A model generated the notes under the pieces. The model worked only from the letters and a program-made list of their open reading frames with translations, had not been told where the DNA came from and did no database searches. A stretch of 64,000 bases of DNA, from the NCBI GenBank assembly GCA_052033375.1, contig JBPOJQ010000013.1, positions 2,255 through 66,254 of the forward strand, written 5' to 3'. The stretch comes from Candidatus Magasanikiibacteriota bacterium. GTDB lineage: Bacteria; Patescibacteriota; Patescibacteriia; Magasanikbacterales; UBA922. How positions within the stretch are numbered: the stretch's first letter is position 1; each line of letters begins with the position of its first letter. Position numbers and translations under genes: made by a program. Shown one piece after another: positions 11,852 through 35,131 of the stretch.

Positions 11852-11858
11852 CACCAAT

Positions 11859-11930: not shown

Positions 11931-11937
11931 CTAGTAT

Positions 11938-12153: not shown

Positions 12154-12429
12154 TTACTCTCCCGCATACTCAAATCTTTTCATTGTCTTTCCATCAACTT
12201 CCACATCACTTTCAAACATACTCTTTGGTCGTGCCCAGAGCTGATCGACTCCATTCTCATCAGGGTGAGAATACACGACCAATTCCTCGTCGGGATTTTC
12301 ACTATGTTTTGCGACACCGATCACTGTGCACATATGACCTTTGTAGTGCCGATATTTTCCAAGTTTAATCATACATGCATTTTTTTCCCTGCCTGCTGAC
12401 AGGTAGTGTGCGTTTTCATCGTTACTCAA
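12154..12429 (-). CDS. DUF1653 family protein
   Basis: The YRHYKG motif and a VVYSHPDENG...WARPKSMF region match the DUF1653 consensus. A minus-strand hairpin plus T-run overlaps the stop at about 12131..12160. Confidence 0.7.
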   Translation of the reverse strand: MSNDENAHYLSAGREKNACMIKLGKYRHYKGHMCTVIGVAKHSENPDEELVVYSHPDENGVDQLWARPKSMFESDVEVDGKTMKRFEYAGE

Positions 12430-14471: not shown

Positions 14472-14481
14472 AGAAAAAAGA

Positions 14482-17151
14482 TTATTCTTGTTTCATTACA
14501 ATTCCAAACACTGCGTCCTCTGTCAGAATACCCTCGGTTGACGCTCCATTGAGGGAGAGTGAGATATCATCACTCGTTCTCCAAACCGGACGCCAGTGAT
14601 CAGGATAAATAACTGTATGTACAAACGCACTCGTCATACCAGACTGTTTTTGCATGACCATACTATATTTCGATGTATGCTCTACCGCCTGTGATAGTTT
14701 GGTAAGATATTCTTTAACCTTGTTCCCTTCTGTTTCTGCATGTTTATTTTCTTCATCGGAAAATGCACGAAAAGGTAGTCGATACGTGAAATATACTTTT
14801 GTCTCCGTATTAGGATACGTGACAATCCAATTTCCAAATGAAGTCTTACCAAATTCATTCACCATTCGAGTTCCTGATCCTTGATGAATACCTTTTTCGA
14901 TTTCATGTGTAGCAAGATCAGCGTCTTCGCGGTACCATTCAGGTGCCACGTGGAATGATGATTCATCAGGAAATACAAATCCACCAGCGTCGAGTAATTC
15001 TGCCCCCTCTGGCACATATACACGAATGTAGCTCGTATTTGGCTGACCAAAAAGTGTTGATTCATCACGCCCCTCATGTCTTCGTGTAATAATGACAGTG
15101 TCGATAATTGAACCATCAGCTTCAACTACGGCTTGATGTTCTACTGTCTGTGCAATATTCACATCACTCTTACCTCCGCCGATATTTGCATTGACGACCA
15201 TGAGATAATCCTGTGTGCGATCAGTCTGAATGATTTCTCCACTCCACCCATATGAACGAGCAAAATCCTGTACACGCGTATCAGTAAAATATGCCTGAAT
15301 TTCACGCTCACCCAGTGCGTCTGAGAGCTCGGTTACCAACGCAATCAATTGCTCCGGCTGAATCGTCTTCAGAATATCGGTAATCTGTCCAAACAGTACT
15401 GAGAGCACTGCCTTTGGTGTATTCAATCCATCCGCATTGTCATACGACTGAATTTCATAACTGAGATCTTTGATAGCTGACTCGCTCGTCAACATCACGT
15501 CATACTGTTCATTCTGCAATGGACCGATAATTTTTAATAGACGCTTGAGTACATCCGCATTAATTGCAATTACCCCATCGACAGTCGTATTTCTACTTTT
15601 TTGATAAAACCATGCAAGTTTTTCTCCTGTTGCTCTGAAATCAGGAAACCAATTCGCATCCTGAAATTCCCATCTATTATTAATTGACTGAAGTGGGACG
15701 GGAGGCTTCACAAATTCACTCAATTGCCCTTGCAAATCATAACTTCCGCCACCAGGAATATCGATGTTCAATATATTTCCATTCTGCACGTCGATTACCC
15801 CAAAACTTCCGATAAATCCTCCTGTCGGACGCAATTCATAGGGATTCTGGAATACGACTAGATACCGTTTGAATCCTTCTGAACCAAGCATGAGTTCAAT
15901 ACCAGAAATCACATCGGACACTTTTTGTACGTCTCCGACCAGTGTGTGAAATAACTCACGAAATTCACTAAATGATTCCTGATATTCAACGGGGAGCGAG
16001 GCAGGCGACACATGATCGAGACGTTCCAGTGCCTCGGTATATTGAGGCAGAGCTCCACGTATATGTACCCGGAGTGTTTTTAGGCGCTCAATATTTGAGA
16101 CATCAGTTGCCATGCGCACCTCATTGATACCCTTGATCAAATACGCATTCCCCAATGCGAGATAATGTCCTGCTTCCAATAATTCCTGTCTACTTTTGAT
16201 TTTTGTACCAACGACTGGTAATAGATCGAGTACATAGACCAATGCTTTATACTCTTTATCAACCATCGTCCGAGCGTTGCCAAAAGAGTTGAGCGCACTC
16301 GTCAAATCTAATTCTGCTTGTGGCAAATTCTGATTAAACGCAGCAACCGTCGAGGATTGGAGCGATAAAAATGCATTCGTACTCTCTGCAATGATTTCTT
16401 TGGTATTTTTTTCTACATCACGATAATACCCCAGTGCTTGGAATGGTGCTGCAGCAATGGTCACCAATATCAGGAGTGACAAAGCAAACTTTCGTATCTG
16501 AAATGAATGGTGTATTTTTTCTCGCGTACGCGCAATCGCGTCTTTCAGAGATACCCAGAACGAATGCCTCGTACGTGTCATGAGTACAGGGGTCAGTGGT
16601 ACTTCCACGTGATTATCGAGGGGTGACATGTTTTGTACAGTATTTTTCGGAGTGATTACATATGCCACGTCACGCACACCCTCGAGTCGTGCAATTTCTT
16701 TCAAAATATCAATGGCTGGTTTTTTGAGCGTATCTCTCGTCACCTGTGTTGCCGGTGCTGCATTTTTCTGATTTGCCAGACGCACCAACTGAGCAAAATC
16801 CACCGCCACCGGACGAGAATTTTTTTTTCTTGTGTCGGGACGATATACCTGAAGACTCTTCCATGCAGTGTCCAATTCTTCATTTTTGAGTGAAACCATG
16901 TGTGGAGATACCGGTGGTTCTCCTGGGGTGACATGTACCGTAATTGTTGGGGTTGTTTTTTTTGTTTTTGGACTGGTTACTATTGGTGTTTCTGGTTGTT
17001 TGTGAACCACGTTTATACCCAAAACAGGAGTTGATTTGTTCACTCCATTTTCGACACACGTACGCGCATTATGTCCCACTTTGTCGCATCGTGCACAGCG
17101 ACGCAGTGGTGCGCGTTTTTTGTTTGAGGATGTTTGAGAATAGTGCGGCAT
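14482..17151 (-). CDS. Large single-pass membrane protein with an N-terminal CCHC zinc knuckle and a large extracytoplasmic domain (possibly DUF4012-like), first gene of the polysaccharide cluster
   Basis: 889 aa. CARCDKVGHNARTC fits CX2CX4HX4C exactly. TM segment FALSLLILVTIAAAPF. C-terminal domain motifs RPTGGFIGSFG and NWFPDF are present. The DUF4012 assignment comes from memory and is uncertain. Confidence 0.8.
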   Translation of the reverse strand: MPHYSQTSSNKKRAPLRRCARCDKVGHNARTCVENGVNKSTPVLGINVVHKQPETPIVTSPKTKKTTPTITVHVTPGEPPVSPHMVSLKNEELDTAWKSLQVYRPDTRKKNSRPVAVDFAQLVRLANQKNAAPATQVTRDTLKKPAIDILKEIARLEGVRDVAYVITPKNTVQNMSPLDNHVEVPLTPVLMTRTRHSFWVSLKDAIARTREKIHHSFQIRKFALSLLILVTIAAAPFQALGYYRDVEKNTKEIIAESTNAFLSLQSSTVAAFNQNLPQAELDLTSALNSFGNARTMVDKEYKALVYVLDLLPVVGTKIKSRQELLEAGHYLALGNAYLIKGINEVRMATDVSNIERLKTLRVHIRGALPQYTEALERLDHVSPASLPVEYQESFSEFRELFHTLVGDVQKVSDVISGIELMLGSEGFKRYLVVFQNPYELRPTGGFIGSFGVIDVQNGNILNIDIPGGGSYDLQGQLSEFVKPPVPLQSINNRWEFQDANWFPDFRATGEKLAWFYQKSRNTTVDGVIAINADVLKRLLKIIGPLQNEQYDVMLTSESAIKDLSYEIQSYDNADGLNTPKAVLSVLFGQITDILKTIQPEQLIALVTELSDALGEREIQAYFTDTRVQDFARSYGWSGEIIQTDRTQDYLMVVNANIGGGKSDVNIAQTVEHQAVVEADGSIIDTVIITRRHEGRDESTLFGQPNTSYIRVYVPEGAELLDAGGFVFPDESSFHVAPEWYREDADLATHEIEKGIHQGSGTRMVNEFGKTSFGNWIVTYPNTETKVYFTYRLPFRAFSDEENKHAETEGNKVKEYLTKLSQAVEHTSKYSMVMQKQSGMTSAFVHTVIYPDHWRPVWRTSDDISLSLNGASTEGILTEDAVFGIVMKQE

Positions 17152-22650: not shown

Positions 22651-22732
22651 TGCTCAGGTGGCGAAATTGGTAGACGCACTACCTTGAGGTGGTAGCGCCG
22701 AAAGGCATGGAGGTTCGAGTCCTCTCCTGAGC
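22651..22732 (+). tRNA. tRNA-Leu (anticodon GAG)
   Basis: Acceptor GCTCAGG/CCTGAGC, anticodon stem CTACC/GGTAG with loop TTGAGGT, and a long variable arm. Confidence 0.85.
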
Positions 22733-22789
22733 ACGACCTTGAGAGACCCTGCTAGATGTCCGAGATGGATACTGCAGATGAGCTTAACA

Positions 22790-22818
22790 AAAAACACCCG
22801 AAATTGGGTGTTTTTTGT
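22790..22818 (+). terminator. Rho-independent terminator downstream of tRNA-Leu
   Basis: AAAAACACCC-GAAATT-GGGTGTTTTTTG. It lies inside the 5' end of the track ORF 22756..24336, so the real CDS start is probably downstream. Confidence 0.7.
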
Positions 22819-22869
22819 TTTACTCAAATAAATGATAATATCTATCTACGCACTATCTGTATTCCTCTT

Positions 22870-24336
22870 ATGAATGAAAAAGAAAAAACTATAAATCAAA
22901 AAATTATCATAAGTTCTGGATTAAATAAGTCAGAAAAGTATTTAGCTAAAATCTGCGGTAAAACTTTCTTATCTTTATGGAGTTATCCTAACCTATATCG
23001 CAATAAAGGAAAAGAATTATCGGATTTGCTTGTTGTTTTTGGTAATCATATTCTAATTTTTTCAGATAAATCATGTGCGTACCCAGTAAGTGAAAATCAT
23101 GAACTTAATTGGAGTCGATGGTTTAGAAGAGCTGTTGAAAAATCAGCAAAACAGTTGTGGCGGGCAGAACAATGGATTCGGCAGTACCCAAAGCAGATTT
23201 TTTTAGATCCAGAATGTACGCAACGTTTCCCATTTGATATAGATATACAAAAAACAAAAATCCACTTAATTTTAGTTGCACATGGAGTTTCTGCATCTTG
23301 CAAAAAGTATTTTAATGGTGGAAGTGGTAGTTTAATTATAAAAAACGATATTAAAAGTATTAATGAGCACACAGAGCCATTTGTTATTGGAGATCTCAAT
23401 CCTTCTAAAACTTTTATACACGTACTCGACGACATAACTCTCGATATAGTGATGAACGCACTTGATACCACATCTGATTTGGTTTCCTATTTTTCTAAAA
23501 AAGAAATTCTGCTTCGCTCAGATAAACATATAATGTATACAGGGGAAGAAGACTTACTTCCCTACTATATGACAAAAATTAAAAATGATGAACATGATTT
23601 TGTATTTCCTGAAGAATCAAATGGTATAGCGATTTTCGAAGGTGAATGGAAAAACTTTTGTAATAATCCACAAAGGAAAGCCCAATTAGAAGAAGATAAA
23701 ATAAGTTACTATTGGGATGCACTAATAGAACAATTCAATAAAAATGCTTTAAACGGCACGCAATATAATACTTCAGCAGGGGGTATAAAAGATTCTGAAA
23801 AAATAATGCGTTTCTTTGCAAGTGAAACTCGATTTCGTAGAAGAATTCTTTCAAAAACTGTTCTTGGTTTGATTGAAAAAACACCTAATGATATTTGTGG
23901 CAGAAGATTTAGTGTTCCTCTAACTAAAGATGGAACCTATTATGCTTTTATCACTTTTCCTAAAAAAAATCATCACACGGAACAACAATATCGAGCTTTT
24001 AGAAGCGAGTACTTAAAAATTTGTTGCATGGTTGTTCGCGCAGTATATCCTAATGCTAAAGATATAATTGGATTTGCAACAGAGTCTGGTAAAGAATTAA
24101 AAGGAAGATCAGAAGATGCTCTATATCTTGATGGAAGACATTGGAATGAAGGAATGCAAAAAGAAGCATTAGAGTTACAGAAGAAATTGGGAATTCTTAT
24201 GGAACCTAATTATTACAAAATGAGTGATACTGAATTTCCAGATGTTAATCCAACACAGATTCCTAAAGTTGGAAGAAATGAAAAATGCCCTTGTGGGTCA
24301 AGTAAAAAATATAAAAGATGTCACGGATTTAAATAA
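22870..24336 (+). CDS. Hypothetical protein with a C-terminal SEC-C metal-binding motif, in an AT-rich (about 28% GC) segment
   Basis: The C-terminus NEKCPCGSSKKYKRCHG is a SEC-C motif. I chose the ATG at 22870 (MNEKEK) because the annotated 22756 start would read through the tRNA terminator hairpin. GC content is clearly below neighbouring genes. Confidence 0.65.
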   Translation: MNEKEKTINQKIIISSGLNKSEKYLAKICGKTFLSLWSYPNLYRNKGKELSDLLVVFGNHILIFSDKSCAYPVSENHELNWSRWFRRAVEKSAKQLWRAEQWIRQYPKQIFLDPECTQRFPFDIDIQKTKIHLILVAHGVSASCKKYFNGGSGSLIIKNDIKSINEHTEPFVIGDLNPSKTFIHVLDDITLDIVMNALDTTSDLVSYFSKKEILLRSDKHIMYTGEEDLLPYYMTKIKNDEHDFVFPEESNGIAIFEGEWKNFCNNPQRKAQLEEDKISYYWDALIEQFNKNALNGTQYNTSAGGIKDSEKIMRFFASETRFRRRILSKTVLGLIEKTPNDICGRRFSVPLTKDGTYYAFITFPKKNHHTEQQYRAFRSEYLKICCMVVRAVYPNAKDIIGFATESGKELKGRSEDALYLDGRHWNEGMQKEALELQKKLGILMEPNYYKMSDTEFPDVNPTQIPKVGRNEKCPCGSSKKYKRCHGFK

Positions 24337-24364
24337 ATCTTTATCTTATTGCCAAAAATTTACT

Positions 24365-24787
24365 TTAAATTAAACATAATTTTTTATCTCTTAGTATTAG
24401 CCTATTTTTAACTACTTCTATAAGTTCTCTTTTCTCAAAGATCTTTCCTTCTTTCAAGATATATTTTGCATACTTCTTCATATCTAAATCTTTCTTTTTC
24501 TCTAATTCATCATTTTTTAAACCCAGAACTGCATACCTAAACTGACTATACCGATCTAGTTCTGCTTCTAATTTCTGTTTGATTCCCAGTTTATCTAGAC
24601 TCACCTTACCTATTATTTCTACTAGCTGCTTTATTACTTCGTTCTCATTCATACTCACTCCCCTGCAATTTTGATCCTTTGTTCTCGTGCACACATAGTA
24701 CACGTATCTATGAACATTCCCATTCTGCTGATGCTTGAATTTTTCATCTGCAGTAATACCTGAACCACAATTTCCACATGTCATCAT
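24365..24787 (-). pseudogene. Probable remnant of a large serine recombinase (recombinase zinc-beta-ribbon plus coiled-coil C-terminal region only)
   Basis: CGNCGSGI...YVYYVCTRTKDQNC followed by a K/E-rich helical tail matches the Zn-ribbon and coiled-coil region of large serine recombinases. No resolvase catalytic domain lies upstream. The 5' region is replaced by the 80-bp repeat. Confidence 0.45.
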
Positions 24788-24840
24788 TCTGGTGAACGCG
24801 AATTCTTTGTTCTTTTTCTTTTAGTACACGCTTCGCCTCT

Positions 24841-24919
24841 TTTACATTCAAAACCAAAGACGCTATACTTATTGACAATGCTATAAATTTGTGTAAATAT
24901 AGCGTAAAATCTTAACTTT
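24841..24919 (+). repeat. 80-bp direct repeat copy 1 (promoter plus 5' leader of secreted-protein paralog A)
   Basis: The two copies read tttacattcaaaaccaaagacgctatacttattgacaatgctataaatttgtgtaaatatagcNtaaaatcttaacttt. The only mismatch seen is G (copy 1) versus C (copy 2) at position N. It contains TTGACA and an extended -10-like TGtaaatat. Confidence 0.85.
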
Positions 24920-24920
24920 A

Positions 24921-26525
24921 TTGATTATGAACAGAAACACAAAAATATCTATTACGGCAGCAGTCGCCCTTGTACTCATTATTGGTGTTGGAATTGGATG
25001 CTACATACATAGTAAAAAAACTACTACAGTATCTACAGGACCAACAACCACCAGCACTCCAAATGTTGTGACAGATCCTACTCCAACCGCTAAAACACCA
25101 TATAACATCGGAGAATCCAGAACACTTAGCCCGATCGGCTATTCAGACTTTGATGAGTTTTTGAAAAAAGCTATTCAAAAAAAGACGGTGAAAAATACAC
25201 GCGATAATCTCAATTACACAGCATATCTCTTGAAACAAGAAGATGCAGATTTTCTTGGCTCATCACGTATTATTGTAAAAATTGATCTTGAACGAGATTA
25301 TGCACCACTTCCCTTTTTTGATACACAAATCAATGATGTAGATAGTATTGGTAATTTTCATGTAACCGACAGCGGTCTTGAACTTACGTCAAAAACACAG
25401 ACTTCTGAAGATGAACGCGCATATCTTCTTGAATTTTCACCTATCGTACTTGGAGATAATTATACTCCAGACTCACTGCGTGTAATGCGATTGGTTTCTG
25501 AATCAATCCGAAATAGCTATAAAAAAACTGTTGCTGATTTTTCTGCCGCACTTACGAAAAATGGTATTGCTAACGAATATAAAAATAATACGCTAGTGGG
25601 ATTTGATATTGGCACTATTTACCATATAACTCTTATAGATAATACAAACTATCAAATAAATGTAATGAGTCCTGATTTTAGTATTGGAATTGGCGAAGGA
25701 ATCCCTACATGGTTTACTCCTAATAAGGTAGATTTCACTGCGAGTACTGACATACTACATTCTCAATTTCTTTACCCTACTGACATCTTGTATTCTGATA
25801 AAATAACTATCGAGGGACAGCTGTCTTTTGTAATATTTACTTACTGCGGATATCCAGCATCAAATTATTGCGTACAGATTCGTACAAAAGACAGCCGAAA
25901 CATGGGATATGTAGTGAATATAGACGTTGATGATTCCTATAAAGAAAATCCTGAAATTGCGGTACAGAAAATTATAACCAGCCCATTGGTTAAAAATATA
26001 TTCTCATCAATCAATTCTCAAGAAAGTACTGCCCAGCCTACACGTGAACACGCTAAGAATGTTATTTCTGCACTTAGAAATGCTGATTTCTCACAACTCT
26101 CTACCTACACTCACCCCGAAAAAGGCATCCGTTTCTCACCATACATATATGTGCAGAAGGATTCACATCTGGTGTTTAAAGTAGATAGTATAAAAAATCT
26201 ACTGAATGATACAAAAGTATATACCTGGGGAACTTACGATGGTTCTGGATTCCCTATTGAACTAACCCCTAAAGAATATTATGATCAATTCGTATATTCT
26301 CGTGACTTTGCGAATGTAGCAAAGATTACCTATAATGATATATCCAATTATAATACCCAAAAAATACTTGAAACGTATCCACAGAGTACTATTGTGGAAT
26401 ATTATTATCCTGGCACCGATCCAAAATTCGAGGGCATGGATTGGCAAAGTTTGCGATTGGTATTTGAGGAATTTAATGGTACCTGGTATCTGGTAGGCAT
26501 TGTGCACGACGAATGGATGATCTAG
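24921..26525 (+). CDS. Membrane-anchored secreted protein, paralog A (N-terminal TM, Thr/Pro-rich linker, multi-domain ectodomain)
   Basis: 534 aa. TM segment ISITAAVALVLIIGVGIGCYI, then linker TTTVSTGPTTTSTPNVVTDPTPTAKTP. The central region NVMSPDFSIGIGEGIPTWFTPNKVDFTA is homologous to the 29310 gene. Confidence 0.8.
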   Translation: MIMNRNTKISITAAVALVLIIGVGIGCYIHSKKTTTVSTGPTTTSTPNVVTDPTPTAKTPYNIGESRTLSPIGYSDFDEFLKKAIQKKTVKNTRDNLNYTAYLLKQEDADFLGSSRIIVKIDLERDYAPLPFFDTQINDVDSIGNFHVTDSGLELTSKTQTSEDERAYLLEFSPIVLGDNYTPDSLRVMRLVSESIRNSYKKTVADFSAALTKNGIANEYKNNTLVGFDIGTIYHITLIDNTNYQINVMSPDFSIGIGEGIPTWFTPNKVDFTASTDILHSQFLYPTDILYSDKITIEGQLSFVIFTYCGYPASNYCVQIRTKDSRNMGYVVNIDVDDSYKENPEIAVQKIITSPLVKNIFSSINSQESTAQPTREHAKNVISALRNADFSQLSTYTHPEKGIRFSPYIYVQKDSHLVFKVDSIKNLLNDTKVYTWGTYDGSGFPIELTPKEYYDQFVYSRDFANVAKITYNDISNYNTQKILETYPQSTIVEYYYPGTDPKFEGMDWQSLRLVFEEFNGTWYLVGIVHDEWMI

Positions 26526-26535
26526 TATTTCCTAT

Positions 26536-27144
26536 ATGTCTACCACCCAACTCCATTTCCGTTACTCTCCCATCTACGACCGCTCTCTTGCAGCATTATC
26601 TTCTACAGAACTTTCTGACGATCAGATTTCAGAAGGTTTTTCTTTTGCCAATGATTTTGCTGCGTATTGGCAAGATAAAAACGACAAAATATTTAATTAC
26701 TATAGTGAACTAGGATTAGTGCTTGCAGATTTTTGGTTAGCATACCCGGTTCATGCACAAAAAAATATTGTTCCATTTAATGATCCTCTTACATTCTTCA
26801 TCAAAGATAATTTTGATGAATGTGCAGCAACAATTACTCATGAAATTTGTCACACGTTCTTTAGTTATTTTGCAAACAATGAACGTGCAGTAGAACTCTG
26901 GAAACCAATTGCAGAAAAATTCTCAGATGAACCAAATGACGTACAGGAACATATTTTAATTAATATGCTTGCATCTGGTGGATACTTCAGAATCTTTGAT
27001 AGTAATAAAGCTATTGAATTAATAAAAATGGAAACCGAATATTCTTCACTCGCTCGAAGCTGGAAGCTTATCTATGATGGTATTGGTGGAGATTTTGAGA
27101 AGCTTAAAGATCCTTTGGAAGCTCTCAAAATTCTTGCTACGTAA
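26536..27144 (+). CDS. Hypothetical protein with an HExxH motif (putative zinc metallopeptidase-like)
   Basis: 202 aa. ITHEICHTFF contains HExxH and is followed by an acidic helical region. Confidence 0.6.
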   Translation: MSTTQLHFRYSPIYDRSLAALSSTELSDDQISEGFSFANDFAAYWQDKNDKIFNYYSELGLVLADFWLAYPVHAQKNIVPFNDPLTFFIKDNFDECAATITHEICHTFFSYFANNERAVELWKPIAEKFSDEPNDVQEHILINMLASGGYFRIFDSNKAIELIKMETEYSSLARSWKLIYDGIGGDFEKLKDPLEALKILAT

Positions 27145-27148
27145 GACG

Positions 27149-27829
27149 TTAAATAGTTTTTCTCTTAAATTCAAAGACATAAAACATAAAAGACTTATTG
27201 TGGGCTGGTCTTTTATATACTTCTACAATTTCAAATCCATTATTTTCTGCCAAATGGAAAGGTAGGTAAATACTCAGATCAGCAAAATTTGCCCAACCGA
27301 AATAGATTCGACCACCAGGATTTAAGTATCTAGCTGCCTGGTTAAAAAACTTTTGTTTCATTAGATTATTTGGGTCCCAAAACATTTTATCGATAGCGTC
27401 CTTTGCACCATGATTGTTGTATGGTGGATTGCAGATAATAGCATCAAAGGTACCGGTAACATTTTCAAAAACATCAGACTGTAAAAACTGAATATTACTT
27501 ATTCCATTTTTCTCTGCATTCAATTTGCTGTTTTCTACCGCGCGTTCATTGATATCCACCCCTACCCCAGATTTTGCATACTGAGCAAGGTATAAACATA
27601 TTGTTCCAGTACCACATCCTATTTCTAAGAATGTTTGTCCTGGTTCCAGACATACCGATTGAGCCATAAGTTCGGTATCAACAGACGTTCTGTATACTCC
27701 ACTAAGCACTTGAATTGGAAGACCACAACACTCAATATCTAGTGGTTGCCCTGTTGTGTGTCTTTCTTGAAGTCTCTCTGTTTGAGACGGGACAGCTGGA
27801 ATATTGCTTTGCTCTAGAGTGAATTTCAT
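27149..27829 (-). CDS. Class I SAM-dependent methyltransferase with an NPPY motif (HemK/PrmC or TrmN6/methyltransferase-small-domain type)
   Basis: Motif I LEIGCGTGTICLYLAQ, acidic DIN, and NPPY (AIICNPPYNN) are present. Confidence 0.7.
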   Translation of the reverse strand: MKFTLEQSNIPAVPSQTERLQERHTTGQPLDIECCGLPIQVLSGVYRTSVDTELMAQSVCLEPGQTFLEIGCGTGTICLYLAQYAKSGVGVDINERAVENSKLNAEKNGISNIQFLQSDVFENVTGTFDAIICNPPYNNHGAKDAIDKMFWDPNNLMKQKFFNQAARYLNPGGRIYFGWANFADLSIYLPFHLAENNGFEIVEVYKRPAHNKSFMFYVFEFKRKTI

Positions 27830-27844
27830 AATTCAAAATAGTAT

Positions 27845-28078
27845 CTAAGACTTTCTCTTGAAAAAAAGGTTCTCAAGCTGCTCAAGTTCCTTTATTGGTT
27901 TTTCTTCAAAGAAACAGACGAATGATTCTTTGAGTGTTTCGTTTTCTAATACTATCTGGAATTTACCTTCATGACTAAAAATGCAATCAATTGGGAAAAA
28001 GTGATGATGCCACGGGATTCCGTTGATAGAATATGATTGGACGAGACGAATTATTTCTTCAAATTGAACAATCTTCAT
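27845..28078 (-). CDS. Small hypothetical protein
   Basis: 77 aa ORF, AT-rich, and co-directional with the neighbouring small gene. Confidence 0.4.
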   Translation of the reverse strand: MKIVQFEEIIRLVQSYSINGIPWHHHFFPIDCIFSHEGKFQIVLENETLKESFVCFFEEKPIKELEQLENLFFKRKS

Positions 28079-28087
28079 ATATTATAT

Positions 28088-28474
28088 CTATTTATTTTCC
28101 ATCACTTGTTTTAAATTTTCTAATATAGCTTGTGTAAATGGATTTTGTAACTCCCCAGTCTTTACCCATTCGTAATATTCTAATTCAGTCTGTGTATCTC
28201 CTATCACTGTATACGAATATCTAACATGATAATTCTCCGCCATATCTGAAAGAGTAAATACATCATATAGTTCATATTCTATTACTTTATAGGTATTCCA
28301 TTCAGTATCAGTGCCAGAATTTTTATACTGCGTACCAATATGCGGAGGATATTCCTCAGCAATTTCTTTTTGAATAGATGGAATCCATAAATGGGTATTC
28401 TCGGGATTGGTGGTAAATTCAAATACAACTGGGGCAGGCTTATCTATAATAATAGTTAGTTTATTTTCTTTCAT
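28088..28474 (-). CDS. Hypothetical protein (possibly SRPBCC/START-like fold)
   Basis: 128 aa. Alternating beta-strand-like hydrophobic patterns are visible. No definitive motif was found. Confidence 0.45.
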   Translation of the reverse strand: MKENKLTIIIDKPAPVVFEFTTNPENTHLWIPSIQKEIAEEYPPHIGTQYKNSGTDTEWNTYKVIEYELYDVFTLSDMAENYHVRYSYTVIGDTQTELEYYEWVKTGELQNPFTQAILENLKQVMENK

Positions 28475-28554
28475 AGATTGAAATCAGTATATCCCATAAA
28501 AAGCACGACCGTCCACAGATGTTCTGGGACGGTCGGCGAATGCGAGCGTAGTGC

Positions 28555-29034
28555 TCAGTAGCCTTTGGAAGGCGGGATGACCTCGTCTCCGACTCGGATG
28601 AGTCCGCACTGGAACACTTCGGCAACGAGACCGCCGCGATCGTAGAAGGCTTCCTTGAACCCCGGCTTGCCCGAGAGGTTGCTCGGACGATCACAAGGAT
28701 CGCAGTACTTCACGCCGAGGAACTTGGCGTCGTCAATCGAGAAGTACTTTCCGATGAGCCACATGAGCTCGACACCTTCGACGACGATGTTCCGTCGGCT
28801 ATCGACGTAGTCAAAGCCCGTCCCTGGGAAGAAGACCCCGTTGATGAACGTGACCTGTCGACGACCTTGGTTACCCTTGTTAAAGCTACCTTCACCCGTG
28901 CAGTAACGATCTCCTTCGAGACCCATACCTTCGAGCGCTCGGACTTCGTTGACCAGCTGCATGGGACCTCCAGCAGCCGGTGAGATGCAGATCGCTATGA
29001 CCTTGCCATTCGCCATACCCTGACTCCTTTTCAT
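28555..29034 (-). CDS. MOSC-domain protein (MoCo sulfurase C-terminal-like), in a high-GC patch
   Basis: 159 aa with conserved Cys and GDRY-type motifs (GLEGDRYCTGEG). Local GC is about 58% against about 39% in the flanks. Confidence 0.55.
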   Translation of the reverse strand: MKRSQGMANGKVIAICISPAAGGPMQLVNEVRALEGMGLEGDRYCTGEGSFNKGNQGRRQVTFINGVFFPGTGFDYVDSRRNIVVEGVELMWLIGKYFSIDDAKFLGVKYCDPCDRPSNLSGKPGFKEAFYDRGGLVAEVFQCGLIRVGDEVIPPSKGY

Positions 29035-29202
29035 GGGTTTGTGCCTATACTACCAGATATTTGAATAAGTTCAATAAGTGTCTTATTTACCACGGAAACA
29101 TGCTCCCCTGACCGAGAGGGTTTCCCCCATCCTTTCAAAAAGACCTTGAAAGAGCCCATGGTTGGCTGTAGATGTGATTATTTGGGCCGTGGTGGTGCAC
29201 AG

Positions 29203-29227
29203 AAAAACACCCGATGAGGGTGTTTTT
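29203..29227 (+). terminator. Hairpin terminator AAAAACACCC-GATGA-GGGTGTTTTT (bidirectional-capable)
   Basis: A GC stem flanked by A-run and T-run. It sits between MOSC (minus) and repeat copy 2. Confidence 0.65.
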
Positions 29228-29303
29228 ACATTCAAAACCAAAGACGCTATACTTATTGACAATGCTATAAATTTGTGTAAATATAGCCTAAAATCTTAAC
29301 TTT
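29225..29303 (+). repeat. 80-bp direct repeat copy 2 (promoter plus leader of paralog B)
   Basis: Near-identical to 24841..24919 (one G/C difference seen). It carries the same TTGACA and extended -10-like element. Confidence 0.85.
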
Positions 29304-29309
29304 TTACTT

Positions 29310-29999
29310 ATGAATAGAAATACTCAGATTGGTATACTCGTTGCAGTTGTTGTTCTTGTAGTGGGTGGATGGTTTGCATACGATATGTATACAACCAAAA
29401 ATACTCCTGTTGTAACTGATCCTAACGGTCAAACTCCTGTAGTTACTCCGACCAATACTGAACCTGGCGATGTTTTAGATTTCTCTAAAAAAATTGCAGA
29501 TATTAGTGCACAGCTGACTGCAAAAGGTGTTACTAATGAATATAAAGAAGTCACTGAATCATTGGATACTGGTAGACGTTTTATGTTTACCTTTGGAGAC
29601 CAGGCACCAGATTACCAGTTATATGTGATGAGTCCTGATTTCGCTCTTGGTGTTGGAGAAGGTGGCCCAACGTCGTTTACTCCTCGTGATATGGATTTTG
29701 CTGCACCTTGGTACGGTATGGTAGATCAATTACAAGAACTTGGATACTACCGCGAACAAAATATTCAAGATTCAAAAAAAGCTGAAATTAATGGAGTGTA
29801 TTTTTATTGGATCTTTGGAGATTTCGGATTTGTGGAACCAGACTTACATGTTCAAGCACTTGCAAATGACAAAGATACTATCGGATACCTACTTCATGTA
29901 AACACCTTTGATCTCGACTACACGGGCAAAGGCATGAAAGCGATTGAAGAAGTAGAGAATAATCCATTTGCACAAAAGATTTTTTCAGTCATCAAATAA
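29310..29999 (+). CDS. Membrane-anchored secreted protein, paralog B (short form)
   Basis: 229 aa. TM segment IGILVAVVVLVVGGWFAYDMY, then T/P linker TPVVTDPNGQTPVVTPTNTEPG. YVMSPDFALGVGEGGPTSFTPRDMDFAA is homologous to the central region of paralog A. Confidence 0.8.
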   Translation: MNRNTQIGILVAVVVLVVGGWFAYDMYTTKNTPVVTDPNGQTPVVTPTNTEPGDVLDFSKKIADISAQLTAKGVTNEYKEVTESLDTGRRFMFTFGDQAPDYQLYVMSPDFALGVGEGGPTSFTPRDMDFAAPWYGMVDQLQELGYYREQNIQDSKKAEINGVYFYWIFGDFGFVEPDLHVQALANDKDTIGYLLHVNTFDLDYTGKGMKAIEEVENNPFAQKIFSVIK

Positions 30000-30027
30000 T
30001 ACATTGCAATATAAAATGTGATCTTTT

Positions 30028-30603
30028 TTATTCTAACATTTTTCTTCGTACCAACAACAGCACCACAAAAGCTCCATTCATGATAATAAGAGAACTCGGG
30101 TATAGCCACGTGGCAAGAGAAAAGGAGTTAAGTGCGATAATTCCAAAAATCCATTTAACACTACTGAACGTATACATAATCGCTGTTTCTTCGTGTGGAT
30201 AGTGATAACCCTTTCGGAAGGTTGGCAAGAAGCCGATTGCGTCAGTAATCGTAATTAATACTACTGACCATGTAGGATCACTGGTAAATTTCCACAGTAA
30301 CATCGATACACATGCAGAGGCTAAACAAAGCCAATCAAACAAACTAAATGTTCGTTTTCCTTTAAATAACGCTAGAAAGAAAATAGTGAAACAAACTAAC
30401 GACGAAAATCCAGTTACCCATGCTCCAGCTCCTGCGTTTTCGGTAACTTGCGCAGCAAATGCGATACCGGTTAGTATTCCCCATACGAGCCAAGAAAATG
30501 CATGCGGTTTTGTCTGATTTTTAATAATATCCCGAAAATATGGAACATAGCCAATGAATGCAAGTATCGTAGCAATATATCCAAATGCAATTTTATAGTC
30601 CAT
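30028..30603 (-). CDS. Polytopic membrane protein with two PQ-loop/MtN3-like repeats (SWEET-like), paralog of 42056..42649
   Basis: 191 aa with 6-7 TM helices. The first repeat is GYVPYFRDIIKNQTKPHAFSWLVWG and the second is GFLPTFRKGYHYPHEETAIMY. Clear similarity to the 42056 gene. Confidence 0.55.
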   Translation of the reverse strand: MDYKIAFGYIATILAFIGYVPYFRDIIKNQTKPHAFSWLVWGILTGIAFAAQVTENAGAGAWVTGFSSLVCFTIFFLALFKGKRTFSLFDWLCLASACVSMLLWKFTSDPTWSVVLITITDAIGFLPTFRKGYHYPHEETAIMYTFSSVKWIFGIIALNSFSLATWLYPSSLIIMNGAFVVLLLVRRKMLE

Positions 30604-30739
30604 ATTGCCTTATTCTACACGAGATCAAAAAATTATGAAAACAAAAACAACCCAGTATCTGAGTTGTTTTTGATGGAACCGCGTTTGCACTCGACTCCAC
30701 CAGGCACACCGCGGTTGAATGTACCCGTTGTCTCAGATG

Positions 30740-31399
30740 TCAGGTTCGGCGACGAAAGATGAATAGACTGTCGACCACACCTCTCTTGGTCGGCAGGCTG
30801 GGCAGATGTGCGTTGCCTCTCGTTCTCACCGCGATCAGCGCCCGATAGGCTTCGAACACCGACTTGTACTGAGTGATGCCAGCTCTCGACAGGAGTAACT
30901 TCAAGAAACTGTACGACTTCGTCTGCTTCAGTTGCTCATCATTCTCCACGGTCTCCCATGCGAGCTGGAGATCAGACGTGTCGACGGTTGCACCACCACC
31001 CATGCCGTCCGAATCGACTCTCGCGACTTCCTCAAAATCTGAATCGTTGTGGAGCCTGGTAGCCACCTCCCACCAGTTGTTGCACACCACGAACCCCGGA
31101 GTGTTGAGGCAGTCGAGTGGACGAGAAGGCAGTGGTGAATTCCTGGCGAAAATCACGTCAGCGAGTTCGGGAAGGGTGAAGTTTTCGACATCTGACTCGT
31201 ACGCTTCATACCCTCGCTCCACCATATTCGACACCACTTTCGGATCAATGTCGAGATAGATGACACGTGCATCAGGGAACATATGCGTCGGCGCATCGTC
31301 ATCGCCACATCCGGGATAGTAGACGACCCGGACCGTGACGCTGATCGACGCGAAGTACGCCTGAATTGCCTTGACCTGGTTACTGTAATTGTCTTGCAT
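30740..31399 (-). CDS. Hypothetical cytoplasmic protein in a high-GC patch with a strong SD
   Basis: A GGAGG sits 7 nt upstream of the ATG at 31399 (MQDNYSNQ...). GC is well above the flanks. The track ORF start at 31447 lies upstream of the SD. Confidence 0.6.
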   Translation of the reverse strand: MQDNYSNQVKAIQAYFASISVTVRVVYYPGCGDDDAPTHMFPDARVIYLDIDPKVVSNMVERGYEAYESDVENFTLPELADVIFARNSPLPSRPLDCLNTPGFVVCNNWWEVATRLHNDSDFEEVARVDSDGMGGGATVDTSDLQLAWETVENDEQLKQTKSYSFLKLLLSRAGITQYKSVFEAYRALIAVRTRGNAHLPSLPTKRGVVDSLFIFRRRT

Positions 31400-31496
31400 G
31401 TTTTTTCCTCCGAAAGGGAAGGTACAGAAAAAAGAGATGCTCGTCAATGGCGTACGCCCACATGATATAGTTTTGATTTAAGTCAACGTTATGGAT

Positions 31497-31525
31497 TTAA
31501 AAACACCCGCTGGGGGTGTTTTTTT
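31497..31525 (+). terminator. Hairpin AAAAACACCC-GCTGGG-GGTGTTTTTTT (bidirectional)
   Basis: It sits between the convergent ends of the 30740 gene and the PEP-utilising enzyme gene. Confidence 0.6.
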
Positions 31526-31536
31526 ATTTATACACT

Positions 31537-33537
31537 CTACACCATCTCTATTTCTCCTGTCTTTCCATCTATTTGAACCATGGTACCAACCAATGTACTA
31601 TCAACTTCTGAATGGATGATGACCGGCATTTTTCTTTCTCGCGCGATGATTGCAAGATGCGACAGCATGCCCCCGCGCTTGGCACAAATTCCCTGTATAC
31701 GATCGAAATATTCAGTGAGTGACGGTGACAGTGTGTCTACCAATAATATGATGTTTTTTTCTGAAAATTTCTCTATAGAAGACATGTTGAGGAGAACTCC
31801 CTTTCCAATTCCTTCGGACACACCCATTCCTTTTTCAATATTCTTTTCAGCATATACTGAAGTGATAAGTGTATCTGTGTATTCAGGTAGATTATTGAAT
31901 ACTTTTTTTCTTTCTGCAATAACAGCATGATCAATAGCACCTGTAGCAAGTTCATCAAGTGTGACAAATAGATATTCATCTCGAGACAAATCTGCTCCTT
32001 TTGCAAGTTCTCGCAGTTTTGAAATATAGACTATAGTAATCCACCTTCCCATTTCACGTATACGTTCACCCTCTCTTGCAGCATTAATCTTACGTTCAAG
32101 ATATTTCTTTTTGCCGACTGAAAGTGTGTCGAGCCATGTCGCCACTACGTCATTTTTTGCATAATTCTTTAGCGGACCAATTGAAAATGTGGAAGTGTCT
32201 GAAATATCCAACCCATTTCCTGTGAGCCTCGGTAATTCCTTCTGTAATTCTGTATACTCTTCATCCAATTCAGAGCTACCTCTTAGCACGTCCAGCACAC
32301 TTACTGACTCTTTTTTCAATAAGATTTTCAGATACCCAAGAGACGTGCTCGCACACAAATTCGCATTGAATACATCCTGATACGCTACGGTAAATCGTTC
32401 TATCCATTCTTCAATAGTTGAGATATGTTCTACACGTCTCACATGTGTAGAAAAATTCTGTACAATTGGACGTGATTTTACATTAAGCACTGAAAGCTTC
32501 ACTAGATTTCGTATGGTTCGTATTACTCCTGATTGGAGTTTAAACGATTGTTTTCCTGTTTGTATGTTTACAATATAAGATGGTAGCAGTGTTTTAATTT
32601 CTTTTACATTATCAATATAGAGGGATTTTCCGAGTAAGGTAAAAAAATCTGTGTCCTTGTATTGTATTCTGTGTATTCTGTACGCTTGCGCAACTGGCCC
32701 CGTATCGCCGTAAATATACTCGAACAGGCTCATTGCTAAGGGATAGGGCACCCCAACAATATCTGTAATGTCATTTTTTACATATCGGTAGTCCGTGTCT
32801 CTTGGTAATGTTGATTCAAGCGAAATAATCTTTTCGTACTGGTCAGTGGTAATAGTCGTAATCGGACGAGACTGTACTACGTACCATACTCCATCTTTGA
32901 TACACCACTCAATATCCTGCGGATGTCCTGCCGTATCCTCCAATACCCTGAACGTCTTTTTCATGCCCTCCCAATTTGGTAGTTTGATTGGCGTGTGTTC
33001 CTGCCAATAAGCCTTGATGGTTTTTGGAGTGACCGCACCTGATACTAATAACTCCCCTGCTCCTTCATGATACTCTAGTACAAATTCTCTTCCTCCGTCT
33101 GGACTTCGGGTAAACAATACACCGGATATATCAGGATCAATATATTCTTGAATAATAATTGAAAATGATGATAATTTTCCGTTTAGATATGTTTTTGCAT
33201 GACGAATAACTTCTTGCAGTGCTTCTGCGATATTCGCTTCAAAAATATTACCCTTACTCATGAATTGACCTGCGTGCGATGATTCTTGTGCATCTTCAAT
33301 AAGCGCATTTGAGCGGATAATATAACGTTTTGCATGCAGAAGTTTTATCACTTCTTGTGCAACAGATTCATATATATCGTGTTTTGCAATGTCTACAATC
33401 TTTTTTGGGGGGATAACGACAAAAGCTGGAACGTTACACCAATTTGTTTGAAGCAATCGTAATCCTCTGGCTTTTCCTCCCCATTGTTTTGCAGGAATAC
33501 GATCCAGCTCTTCACTTACATAACAAAACTCATTCAT
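31537..33537 (-). CDS. PEP-utilising enzyme family phosphotransferase (PPDK-type N-terminal ATP-grasp domain plus C-terminal phosphohistidine swivel domain), similar in architecture to rifampin phosphotransferase
   Basis: The N-terminus WGGKARGLRLL matches the PEP synthase/PPDK nucleotide-binding domain. The C-terminus GICAKRGGMLSHLAIIARERKMPVI is the mobile His-domain signature. Confidence 0.75.
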   Translation of the reverse strand: MNEFCYVSEELDRIPAKQWGGKARGLRLLQTNWCNVPAFVVIPPKKIVDIAKHDIYESVAQEVIKLLHAKRYIIRSNALIEDAQESSHAGQFMSKGNIFEANIAEALQEVIRHAKTYLNGKLSSFSIIIQEYIDPDISGVLFTRSPDGGREFVLEYHEGAGELLVSGAVTPKTIKAYWQEHTPIKLPNWEGMKKTFRVLEDTAGHPQDIEWCIKDGVWYVVQSRPITTITTDQYEKIISLESTLPRDTDYRYVKNDITDIVGVPYPLAMSLFEYIYGDTGPVAQAYRIHRIQYKDTDFFTLLGKSLYIDNVKEIKTLLPSYIVNIQTGKQSFKLQSGVIRTIRNLVKLSVLNVKSRPIVQNFSTHVRRVEHISTIEEWIERFTVAYQDVFNANLCASTSLGYLKILLKKESVSVLDVLRGSSELDEEYTELQKELPRLTGNGLDISDTSTFSIGPLKNYAKNDVVATWLDTLSVGKKKYLERKINAAREGERIREMGRWITIVYISKLRELAKGADLSRDEYLFVTLDELATGAIDHAVIAERKKVFNNLPEYTDTLITSVYAEKNIEKGMGVSEGIGKGVLLNMSSIEKFSEKNIILLVDTLSPSLTEYFDRIQGICAKRGGMLSHLAIIARERKMPVIIHSEVDSTLVGTMVQIDGKTGEIEMV

Positions 33538-34883
33538 AATGATTCAGTGCCATCATAGAATGTTCTTCCCAAAAATGTATGTCCTTGTCTCTCAAGCTCG
33601 ATTCCCACCAACCGAGCATCAAAACAATCAACATAATTATCACACACCACAATAATTTTACTTTCAGGAGGAACTACAGATAGAATAGCATCCATTTGAC
33701 GTGTCGGCGTGTGCATAATCCTCAGTGGGATACCCCCTGCCAATGGTTTTTCTCGTGTTGTTGAAGGTTCTCGACTATCTATCAATACTACTCCCTCTTT
33801 TTTCAAATCAATTACTTGTTGTGAGGTAAATAGTTTTGAATACCGTTCTGCTTCATATACCGCACCAAACGATAACTCCCCTTCCCACCGCCCACCACTT
33901 TCAACCCATCCCTTTGCCCCATCTTTGAGGTAATACGCGTCAATACCTTTTGAACGAAGAAATGTAACCACCATGCTTCCACGAATCCCTGACCAACAAA
34001 AAACATACACAGGCACATCTTTCGGTAATTCTATCCATTGACCTCCTTCATCAAGATCCGCAAACTTTATATGCGTACTGCTCGGATAATGACCATACTC
34101 ATATTCTATTTGCTCACGCGCATCGAGTACAAATACTGTACTTGTTGTCTGTGTAATTTGTGCAAACAACTCATTAGTTATTTCGTGAGTTACTGTTGTG
34201 TCTATCGATGCTGTACCATTCCCCAGTTCTACAATATCTGCAGAATCCAGCGTGAGTGGATTTCCGCTTTGATCTAGAACAAGCGTCGTTAAGATTCCAT
34301 AGGTGGTCTCAGTTGAACCTTCGACCAGAACTACTCTCACTGAATACGTATATGGATCCATTTTTTCCACTTTCTCAACACGAGTATTTGTAACACTTGC
34401 ATACACAGATGCAAATTCTTCATATGTGCTTTGTTTTGCAGTCATCGCATATGCTGTAGTTAAATCTCCTATAGCAATATATTCGTAATACAGACGTATA
34501 AATGCACTCGCTGTAGCATCTTGTGCATCTTCTTTCTCTTTCTTTTCTTCCATTTTTTGAGTATATGTCTCCTGTTGAACTAAAATCTGTGCGTTTATTT
34601 TTTCCAATTGTTTGCGTTGAAAATGTAGATCAATTCCATATGCGACACCAAGGGAAATAGTGAAGATTCCCAAAATGCTAAAAATAATAATGATGTATTT
34701 ATGAGAAATCAGCCGACGGATAAACTGAAATGATACAGTAAAGCCAGTCACAAGAAATGCAAAAATCCAACCAAAAATAGGAACAATTTGAGATGTAATC
34801 TGCACAATAAATTCAGGCGGGGGTACTGCACGCGTAATTCCAGGAACGAAGAGTAAGACGAGTACCAAACAAAGGTAAATCAT
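33534..34883 (-). CDS. Membrane-anchored tandem rhodanese-domain protein (putative sulfurtransferase)
   Basis: Two N-terminal TMs. Rhodanese motifs YVFCWSGIRGSMVVTFLRSKG and IIVVCDNYVDCFDARLVGIELE are present. There is a 4-nt overlap with the upstream gene. Confidence 0.7.
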   Translation of the reverse strand: MIYLCLVLVLLFVPGITRAVPPPEFIVQITSQIVPIFGWIFAFLVTGFTVSFQFIRRLISHKYIIIIFSILGIFTISLGVAYGIDLHFQRKQLEKINAQILVQQETYTQKMEEKKEKEDAQDATASAFIRLYYEYIAIGDLTTAYAMTAKQSTYEEFASVYASVTNTRVEKVEKMDPYTYSVRVVLVEGSTETTYGILTTLVLDQSGNPLTLDSADIVELGNGTASIDTTVTHEITNELFAQITQTTSTVFVLDAREQIEYEYGHYPSSTHIKFADLDEGGQWIELPKDVPVYVFCWSGIRGSMVVTFLRSKGIDAYYLKDGAKGWVESGGRWEGELSFGAVYEAERYSKLFTSQQVIDLKKEGVVLIDSREPSTTREKPLAGGIPLRIMHTPTRQMDAILSVVPPESKIIVVCDNYVDCFDARLVGIELERQGHTFLGRTFYDGTESL

Positions 34884-35131
34884 GAAATTTTTGTAATTAT
34901 GTACTATATTTTAGCTTAAATTACTAAACATCGCAATTTATTGGGTTACCCACGACAGTCTCTCATTTCCCATAGAAACATACCCCCGACCGAGAGACGC
35001 CCACTCAGAAAACAGGCGATACGACTATTGAAAAAAACACCGTACTGTAGTACATTTCTCAATGTAGAGGTCAGTCTAGGAACAACTCTCCTGACCTACC
35101 AATTCACACACCTCAGAGGAGGTAACGCAAC

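Follow-up and report, generated by a model that had tools for sequence, protein, structure and literature searches.

Genomic islands and prophage remnants whose integrase is degraded typically occupy the 3′ end of a tRNA gene, are missing from the orthologous sites of related genomes, have an atypical base composition and retain an integrase pseudogene. Such islands carry defense-type as well as metabolic cargo and can accrete in tandem at one site. The 3′ ends of tRNA genes are the classical targets of tyrosine integrases. Large serine recombinases (LSRs), such as those of phiC31, Bxb1 and TP901-1, are composed of Resolvase, Recombinase and Zn_ribbon_recom domains. We analyzed a stretch of 64,000 nucleotides, in the following called the window, from a Candidatus Magasanikiibacteriota bacterium (assembly GCA_052033375.1, contig JBPOJQ010000013.1, positions 2,255 to 66,254). 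Next to its tRNA-Leu(GAG) gene it probably contains a truncated LSR element at an integration hot spot, with the gene of a SEC-C-motif protein in the cargo slot of the element. The locus is a new example of a known and common kind of feature, the tRNA-linked island with a broken integrase, and shares all the properties listed above, those of the cargo and of tandem accretion being seen in the window or in its relatives. It differs from the usual islands of this kind in that the recombinase is an LSR and not a tyrosine integrase, in that no tRNA 3′ segment is duplicated except for GCAC, and in its host, a member of the candidate phyla radiation (CPR). A preliminary description made from the letters of the sequence had proposed the remnant of an integrative element beside tRNA-Leu at the start of an accessory region, and orthologues, synteny and a junction resembling an attachment site all supported this proposal.

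The 3′ remnant of the LSR gene is located on the reverse strand at 24365–24818. It includes an open reading frame (ORF) of 140 codons (24365–24787, −), which starts with ATG and is convergent with the SEC-C gene at a distance of 28 bp. The deduced protein matched the family Zn_ribbon_recom (PF13408; E = 4.2e-7, 30.7 bits at a cut-off of 25.3 bits) and the PHROG family “integrase” (phrog_95, profile positions 376–490 of 651). It consists of the zinc beta-ribbon and the coiled-coil tail of an LSR, and both the Resolvase domain (PF00239) and the Recombinase domain (PF07508) were absent from the ORF in the Pfam search. Since the frame is closed at 12 codons before the ATG and the distance to the next gene is only 133 bp, the fragment cannot contain catalytic domains. 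Three relatives (L006, L009 and L011) have intact recombinases of 431–433 amino acids, with the three-domain architecture of Resolvase, Recombinase and Zn_ribbon, at this locus, 3.7–7.1 kb past tRNA-Leu and on the same strand. The fragment showed 76–77% amino acid identity to them and was collinear with residues 293–433 of the L006 protein (76%), whose Recombinase domain covers residues 186–276. At the DNA level, homology to the three loci amounted to 81–82%, was confined to 24446–24818 and ended at the latter position, indicating that about 283 N-terminal codons are gone.

The element thus possesses only a 3′ remnant of a recombinase gene of its own, and for this reason it must now be non-autonomous. 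Within the remnant neither an internal stop codon nor a frameshift was found, and its ratio of nonsynonymous to synonymous substitution rates (dN/dS) in comparison to the intact genes was 0.04–0.07, the same as among the intact genes themselves, with synonymous sites being saturated. This argues for a truncation that is recent relative to the divergence of the genes. The preliminary description had recognized a truncated serine recombinase with C-terminal zinc beta-ribbon and coiled coil on the strand opposite to the SEC-C gene; the domain match and the orthologues agree with this and assign the ORF to the C-terminal third of an LSR. It had, however, called the element decayed, which overstates its condition. 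The recombinase family is large, with more than 8,000 matches at E ≤ 1e-30, of which those with a source name were mostly from Patescibacteria. It was also present on 25 IMG/VR contigs, in one of which (L023) a tRNA-Gln gene lies 120 nt past the 3′ end of the recombinase gene. The recombinases of L006, L009 and L011 are 84–89% identical to each other and do not track the identities of core genes (50–96%), which indicates horizontal movement.

The breakpoint lies in an interval of 21 nt (24819–24839) between the end of the recombinase homology and an 80-nt promoter-like unit (copy A, 24840–24919, +). A repeat search and alignment revealed a second copy with 99% identity (copy B, 29224–29303, +). 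These are the only two copies in the window and they are 4.4 kb apart. A repeat of this kind only 21 nt from the breakpoint, on a contig that resembles those of metagenome-assembled genomes, could raise the suspicion that the truncation is an assembly artefact caused by a chimeric join at the repeat. This explanation is highly improbable, because an independent Logan contig (run SRR34217543) was 100% identical to positions 23788–24860 and covers the truncation junction together with the first 21 nt of the repeat, and because a mis-join via the repeat would have swapped the sequence to its right instead of creating a junction to its left.

To delimit the accessory DNA, we compared the window with 12 loci of Ca. 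Magasanikbacteria and related Patescibacteria, which were retrieved with the sugar-transferase gene left of the tRNA gene (41–91% amino acid identity). The left flank was collinear in at least nine of these relatives and comprised RNase III, tRNA-Lys, tRNA-Arg, DUF11, DUF4012, three glycosyltransferases, the sugar transferase and tRNA-Leu. To the right of tRNA-Leu, the gene content was different in every relative. In L005, a block of abhydrolase, RNase P RNA, DAGK, bactofilin and kinase genes begins 1.4 kb past tRNA-Leu, and in L014 a block of RNase P RNA, DAGK and bactofilin begins 1.9 kb past it. Homology between the window and L005 resumes at 35903. From these two loci with conserved right flank it follows that positions 22735–35902 (13.2 kb) are accessory; L005 and L014 lack this stretch at the orthologous site. 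The conserved right flank (35924–37192, −) consists of the abhydrolase gene (35924–36676) and of a bacterial class A RNase P RNA (36768–37192, −; 115.7 bits). An ORF of 116 codons at 36886–37236 (+) overlaps this RNA and was rejected as spurious. The accessory region postulated in the preliminary description was thus confirmed by the variable right side, but its end had been placed too far downstream, at about 36.7 kb instead of about 35.9 kb, since the abhydrolase gene is common to the window and L005.

The tRNA-Leu(GAG) gene was identified by ARAGORN and by the Rfam tRNA model at 22652–22734 (+). Its last four nucleotides are GCAC (22731–22734), which we propose to be the crossover core on the attL side. 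Near-identical tRNA-Leu copies with the same 3′ end are present in the relatives. The gene is followed by a trailer and an intrinsic terminator (22735–22821, +), which were delimited by folding and by homology to relatives. The terminator is separated from the tRNA by a 52-nt trailer and consists of a GC-rich hairpin of 15 bp (approximately 22786–22817) and a U-run reaching to about 22821. The segment 22735–22825 folds at −33.3 kcal/mol (z = −7.3 in comparison to shuffled sequences). Two types of trailer can be distinguished behind the tRNA. A conserved trailer and terminator termed S1 adjoin the tRNA end (…GAGCAC) in five relatives, whereas the window, L008 and L010 have a second type termed S2. 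The next segment, from about 22.8 to 24.8 kb, is filled by the two convergent ORFs and has a GC content of 29–34% per 500-nt segment compared to 40.9% for the whole window. The SEC-C gene has a GC content of 31.8% (19.8% at third codon positions, GC3) and the recombinase fragment one of 32.2%. The terminator and the AT-rich segment were both part of the preliminary description, although the terminator does not follow the tRNA immediately, as stated there, and the GC content of the following 2 kb is about 32% rather than 28%.

A direct repeat of the tRNA-Leu 3′ end, which the preliminary description had suggested looking for downstream as attR, was not found: a repeat search revealed no meaningful tRNA-derived match of 11 nt or more anywhere in the window. 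The class-1 trailer (ACTGTTGG...GGTGACCGCTAGTCAT) was considered as a displaced attR as well and had no match in the window at up to three mismatches. An attR-like junction was, however, recognized at about 29203 by homology to the junctions of relatives. Here, a segment of about 115 nt, termed the X arm (29085–29203, +), ends with GGTGGTGCAC and thus with the same GCAC as tRNA-Leu, these four nucleotides being the only ones common to both ends. The X arm showed homology to copies in L046 (13638–13770; 76% identity over 96 nt, E = 1.5e-11), L009 (4630–4765), L050 (9864–9902) and L052 (14936–15077), and further copies were found in L047 and L051. Within it, the motif GTCTCATTT is duplicated, a CCCCGACCGAGAGGG block is present and the palindrome GTGCAC forms the end; a copy of the tRNA 3′ half is lacking. 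Directly behind it lies a tRNA-type terminator (AAAAACACCCGATGAGGGTGTTTTT; 29203–29228, +). In about 600 kb of fetched loci, this exact 25-mer was otherwise confined to L010 and L014, where it is the terminator of tRNA-Leu. Other functions of the X arm were also considered. Rfam searches at E ≤ 10 gave only noise, the consensus fold of three copies had no useful covariation and the fold was not exceptional (z = −1.8), so that a known RNA was rejected, and a role as 5′ untranslated region of the neighboring gene was dismissed because the orientation of the neighbor varies between loci.

In four other genomes, the X arm forms the far end of inserts at tRNA-Leu, and each copy is fused to sequence that is otherwise found 3′ of tRNA-Leu. 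In L050, a shortened X arm is followed by GCAC and a trailer with 78% identity to the tRNA trailer of the window, and the X-GCAC of L052 continues into the type of trailer that L009 has behind its tRNA. L009 itself has an insert of 4.9 kb between tRNA and S1, which is flanked by a 17-nt direct repeat (GCACACTGTTGGACACC), has X at its far end and encodes a NUDIX protein, two dCTP-deaminase-like proteins, a methyltransferase, an AlaX-like protein and an S66 peptidase. Precise boundaries were obtained with L045, a longer version of L006, and with L046, which like L047 carries a 100%-identical recombinase. L045 and L046 share 5.67 kb at 99% identity, extending from a LOOT RNA via the recombinase, a 901-residue helicase and a 296-residue protein to S1, and the exact endpoint of this identity is the 3′ terminus of the tRNA in L045, whereas in L046 it is the end of X (...GTGTGCAC). 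The homology of the window to L045 ends exactly at 22734. As X is always fused to what normally follows tRNA-Leu, it has the signature of an attR, and we propose on the basis of these alignments that the X arm of the window is the attR-side arm of the element. Identities of 4–17 nt between sites are in the range typical of serine-integrase attachment sites, and the system appears to use a core of this size, which would explain why a long attR repeat is absent.

The relatives also revealed how complete units are organized. In the orientation of the window, the order is a tRNA or X junction, trailer and terminator, a cargo slot, the recombinase gene on the reverse strand and a divergent LOOT RNA, and this order was constant in five distinct units. 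Beyond the LOOT RNA follow a gene for a lipoprotein or a tRNA_anti-like protein, a small gene of the helix-turn-helix (HTH)/Sf6-terminase-like type and a ParB-N6/N4 methylase gene. The LOOT RNA (Rfam RF03000) is an orphan family and is located about 50–350 nt upstream of the recombinase gene. It was found in four Magasanikbacteria loci (L006/L045, 4378–4513 in L006; L011, 2982–3114; L046, 8194–8329; L052, 8376–8508) and on three IMG/VR contigs (L021, L025 and L039); in the window it has been lost along with the 5′ part of the recombinase gene. Joined at an overlap of 1,016 nt (99.7% identity), L052 and L046 revealed a tandem arrangement of two full units with a portion of a third in one Magasanikbacteria population. 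The cargo slot, which lies between attachment site and recombinase and holds the SEC-C gene in the window, is occupied by different defense-type genes elsewhere. L052 contains a complete type II cyclic-oligonucleotide-based antiphage signaling system (CBASS) operon (9919–14784; SMODS, SAVED, Cap2-like E1/E2, JAB) directly 3′ of its 457-residue recombinase, L009 a ThsB-type TIR protein (Thoeris-type), L006, L045 and L046 a superfamily 1 helicase, and L011 a C5 cytosine methylase; in L004, Shedu SduA follows directly after the tRNA.

Mosaic cargo of this sort, the heterogeneous GC content (31–57%), the LOOT-side boundaries of the 99% block of L045 and L046, which decay gradually inside lipoprotein genes, and the 80-nt repeat as a trace of recent homologous exchange within the window would also be expected if no site-specific element existed. 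The locus would then be a generic hot spot of homologous or illegitimate recombination and deletion, i.e., a defense island, and the recombinase fragment a by-product of a deletion in a resident gene. We consider this quite unlikely, because five genomes have junctions at GCAC that are precise to the nucleotide and invariably involve the same X arm, and because one insert has clean 17-nt direct repeats.

Our model is therefore that of an element built around an LSR, which inserted at the 3′ end of tRNA-Leu(GAG) and was truncated later. The attB site would be tRNA-GCAC-trailer(B) and the attP site X-GCAC-trailer(P), and integration would yield tRNA-trailer(P)...X-trailer(B). A crossover at or near GCAC, presumably catalyzed by the LSR, would place the terminator of the element behind the tRNA and move the old trailer and terminator to the far end behind X, and repeated integrations would build tandem arrays. 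A full unit would read [tRNA or earlier X]-GCAC, trailer, cargo, recombinase, LOOT, the lipoprotein, HTH and ParB-methylase genes, further cargo, X-GCAC and the old trailer with its terminator. We infer that positions 22735–29203 of the window were once a single element of this kind. It would have kept its trailer and terminator, the SEC-C gene as cargo and the last 140 recombinase codons, while a deletion or rearrangement at 24818–24839 would have cost it its core and the catalytic two-thirds of its recombinase. Past the breakpoint, it would still have its right-arm cargo and the X arm, followed by the tRNA-type terminator that was displaced.

The SEC-C gene (22870–24336, +) encodes a protein of 488 amino acids, and the preliminary description had noted it as a protein of unknown function with 489 residues. 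Homologues of 486–497 residues align from residue 1, in agreement with the ATG at 22870 as start codon. An alternative call of 526 codons from the ATG at 22756 was discarded, as it would read through the terminator. The only Pfam match of the protein was the SEC-C motif (PF02810) at residues 469–486 (CPCGSSKKYKRCHG; E = 7.8e-8, 32.5 bits at a cut-off of 20.4 bits), and the C-terminal Cys/His zinc knuckle characteristic of SEC-C-motif proteins is present; a profile of 42 homologues matched the C-terminal peptides of SecA and YchJ in the PDB. More than 1,691 homologues with 45–75% identity were found in Patescibacteria, Acholeplasmataceae, Thermodesulfobacteriota and others. The protein matched phrog_18195 over its full length (E = 1e-77); despite this match, no homologue was found in the INPHARED phage records. 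Homologues were encoded on 143 plasmids, 92 of which are conjugative, and among the plasmid matches listed many were Klebsiella, Citrobacter and E. coli plasmids of about 50 kb. The IncN plasmid L048 (NZ_KX881941.1) encodes at 5995–7470, between the replication-initiation gene repA and a resolvase gene, a 491-residue “SEC-C metal-binding domain-containing protein” that is 33% identical to the window protein over the full length. The copies on the other plasmids of about 50 kb from these three hosts are likewise 33% identical over the full length. A literature search for the L048 protein gave no result. An IncN plasmid homologue has the accession WP_020324153.

In other genomes, the SEC-C gene occurs as a single-gene insertion amid housekeeping genes, and it was absent from all 12 related loci. 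Its GC3 of 20%, its absence from the loci of relatives, the PHROG match, the plasmid copies and the single-gene insertions together indicate that the gene is foreign and mobile. Membership in a conserved multi-gene system was rejected, since the neighborhoods inspected in other genomes and on two plasmids had no partner gene in common. Co-transfer with the recombinase was rejected, too: a recombinase of the same family is located near the SEC-C gene in the Nealsonbacteria locus L002, but it is 45% identical and arranged differently. These neighborhoods also bear on the idea that the SEC-C protein and the 140-residue zinc-ribbon/coiled-coil protein form a functional two-gene module with a domesticated short ORF. 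The intact ORF with its ATG, the low dN/dS and the convergent arrangement at 28 bp are what such a module might look like. However, with synonymous sites saturated the low dN/dS reflects mostly the history before truncation, none of the five other distinct SEC-C neighborhoods inspected (L001, L002, L016, L018 and L048) contained such a partner, and the exact 140-residue protein forms a one-member cluster in a collection of 15 billion proteins, so that we give this idea hardly any credence.

To get further insights into the SEC-C protein, we predicted its structure with AF2 using the 42 homologues. The model had a mean predicted local distance difference test (pLDDT) of 86.9 and a predicted template modeling score (pTM) of 0.84 and contained an alpha-beta-beta-beta-alpha-beta core at residues 20–136. 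E49, D52, S65 and K67 are invariant and D66 is nearly so, and in the model these residues are located on strands 2 and 3 of the core. Fold searches of the PDB and BFVD with the model gave no significant match (best Foldseek E = 0.026). The weak top matches were enriched in PD-(D/E)XK nucleases, and the Pfam family NERD (PF08378) was matched weakly (E = 0.0035) in three of the 42 family members. With NERD and PD-(D/E)XK domains, including Shedu SduA, Cas4 and RecE-type folds, the modeled protein would share the order of secondary structure elements in the core as well as acidic and lysine residues (E49, D52, D66-K67). It differs from these nucleases in that the matches are non-significant and in that its motif reads S-D-K instead of (D/E)-x-K. 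In PADLOC-DB v2, only the 20-residue SEC-C motif was matched (by PDC-S12 and E2 models), and neither the body of the protein nor the neighboring genes gave a match.

A loose precedent is Rugutis, a single-gene antiphage protein of 359 residues with an N-terminal SEC-C motif that is encoded on lactococcal plasmids (PMC11381338). Like Rugutis, the window protein stands alone, is borne by a plasmid or element, and has a SEC-C zinc motif and otherwise no recognizable fold. It differs in size (488 residues) and in the C-terminal position of the motif, and the comparison implies no homology beyond the motif. The SEC-C protein is most likely a stand-alone, horizontally mobile defense-type protein, and it may possibly be a nuclease of the NERD- or PD-(D/E)XK-like type that carries a zinc knuckle at its C-terminus. 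A nuclease-type defense role is a reasonable, as yet unproven guess, to which we would give somewhat less than an even chance.

Several observations weigh against our interpretation of the locus as a truncated LSR element with a defense-type cargo gene. The 4-nt core of the window, taken by itself, is indistinguishable from chance, so that the case for an attR depends on X-arm homology and on the terminator being identical. Three scans of viral and metagenome collections for X motifs returned nothing, and neither a free or circular form of the element nor a pair of attP and attB sites was recovered. A joining of L010 and L050, two loci of one assembly, to a complete element was rejected for lack of overlap between their contig ends. 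The 80-nt repeat with its 99% identity speaks for a rearrangement or gene conversion at a later time, and that the genes at 24921–29034 and the SEC-C gene belonged to one element is again something we infer. The argument for a defense role of the SEC-C protein is one of association, as the protein had no significant structural match and no PADLOC match beyond the 20-residue motif. LSRs are not classically tRNA-targeting, and the characterized serine integrases are not known to use the extreme end of a tRNA gene as target, to have a conserved arm of about 115 nt such as X, or to be linked to a LOOT RNA.

The last of these concerns, together with the role of tRNA 3′ ends as tyrosine-integrase targets, raises the question whether the inserts at tRNA-Leu were moved by another enzyme, e.g., a tyrosine integrase that was lost or is encoded outside the fetched DNA. 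The LSR would then be a passenger or resident gene and its fragment uninformative about the formation of the island. This explanation gains from L009, whose 17-nt direct repeat is long for a serine integrase and whose repeat-flanked insert encodes no recombinase, the nearest one lying outside, so that one has to assume either action in trans or decay; it gains also from L045, where the 15 kb seen had no X arm on the right side of the recombinase unit. It is nevertheless unlikely. No tyrosine integrase was found among the genes examined in the tRNA-Leu-linked loci, every tRNA or X junction is followed by trailer, cargo and LSR gene with the same polarity, and the X arm lacks the tRNA 3′ half, with identity reduced to 4 nt in the window and in L050, unlike the attachment sites of tyrosine integrases. 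An LSR element that was truncated after integration at tRNA-Leu(GAG) therefore remains the explanation that we favor.

The genes between the breakpoint and the X arm start directly behind copy A of the 80-nt unit. This unit contains TTGACA ... TAAATAT and the inverted repeat CGCTATA/TATAGCG, and copies with the same left boundary were found in L046 (84–85% identical) and L050 (77%). Copy A precedes a gene for a protein of 534 residues without known domains and with a membrane anchor at its N-terminus (24921–26525, +), and copy B its 229-residue paralogue (29310–29999, +). The two proteins are just 35% identical over 172 residues despite the 99% identity of the preceding units. As judged from these alignments, the repeat appears to show a recent gene conversion or Campbell-type event in this genome, and given such a recent exchange the present gene order is probably not the original one. 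Alternatively, the unit suggests a cassette-like module of promoter plus gene. The 534-residue protein is 41% identical to the product of a 378-codon gene behind the same promoter type in L050, and the 229-residue paralogue has an 83%-identical orthologue inside an element in L046. The right-arm cargo that follows (26536–29034; assigned by Pfam and GC content) encodes a 202-residue protein of unknown function (+), an MTS-type methyltransferase (27149–27829, −), an SRPBCC protein (28088–28474, −) and a MOSC protein (28555–29034, −) whose gene has a GC content of 56.5%. A MOSC protein with 92% identity is encoded beside the X arm in L050. Close homologues (62–92% identity) of the MOSC protein are widespread, the few named ones being from Patescibacteria, and the notion that the high-GC genes were imported from high-GC donors is thus unsupported for the MOSC gene. 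A high GC content alone therefore does not speak for such an origin.

To the right of the X arm, positions 29204–35902 are older accessory DNA. The part at 30028–35902 had no counterpart in any of the 12 related loci. According to Pfam and GC content, it encodes a 191-residue protein (30028–30603, −), a 235-residue protein with 54% GC (−), a 666-residue protein resembling PEP-utilizing enzymes (−), a 449-residue rhodanese-domain protein (−) and a 230-residue protein with 53% GC (+). The heterogeneous gene content that the preliminary description had reported downstream of the AT-rich segment was thus borne out by the paralogues at 24921–26525 and 29310–29999, three genes with 53–57% GC and the methyltransferase gene. 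Short genes with 52–57% GC in this 41% GC genome are located at 28555–29034, 30740–31447 and 35132–35824, and also outside the island at 59992–60402 and 62397–62744; except for the MOSC gene, they matched no family. The 191-residue protein has a paralogue encoded outside the island at 42056–42649 (24% identity over 169 residues). Elsewhere in the window, two tandem genes at 51153–52730 and 52738–54348 encode paralogues with 43% identity over 530 residues, and a valyl-tRNA synthetase-like protein of 1,071 residues (46523–49738, −) contains a His_Phos_1 domain at residues 496–669 inside the tRNA-synt_1 catalytic region.

The interest of the locus beyond the window lies in the grammar of the hot spot, in tandem LSR units with a defense slot, in the linkage to LOOT RNA and in the SEC-C family. 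It provides a case of a precise hot spot of integration, with LSR elements in tandem and defense cargo (CBASS, TIR, Shedu, helicase), in CPR bacteria, organisms that cannot be grown alone and whose mobile elements are little known, and it ties an orphan RNA family, LOOT, to one recombinase family. A more far-reaching view, which we regard as doubtful but possible, is that CPR bacteria of the Magasanikbacteria group harbor a family of LSR elements that use the tRNA-Leu 3′ end via a GCAC core, stack in tandem, are linked to LOOT RNA and have a dedicated, exchangeable defense slot, and that the SEC-C/NERD-like protein, which occurs also on about 140 plasmids, among them conjugative IncN plasmids of Klebsiella, would be a new single-gene nuclease directed against phages or plasmids. 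The family sharing the C-terminal SEC-C motif (phrog_18195) is in any case large, highly conserved and uncharacterized, is found also on clinical IncN plasmids, and represents a candidate defense gene.

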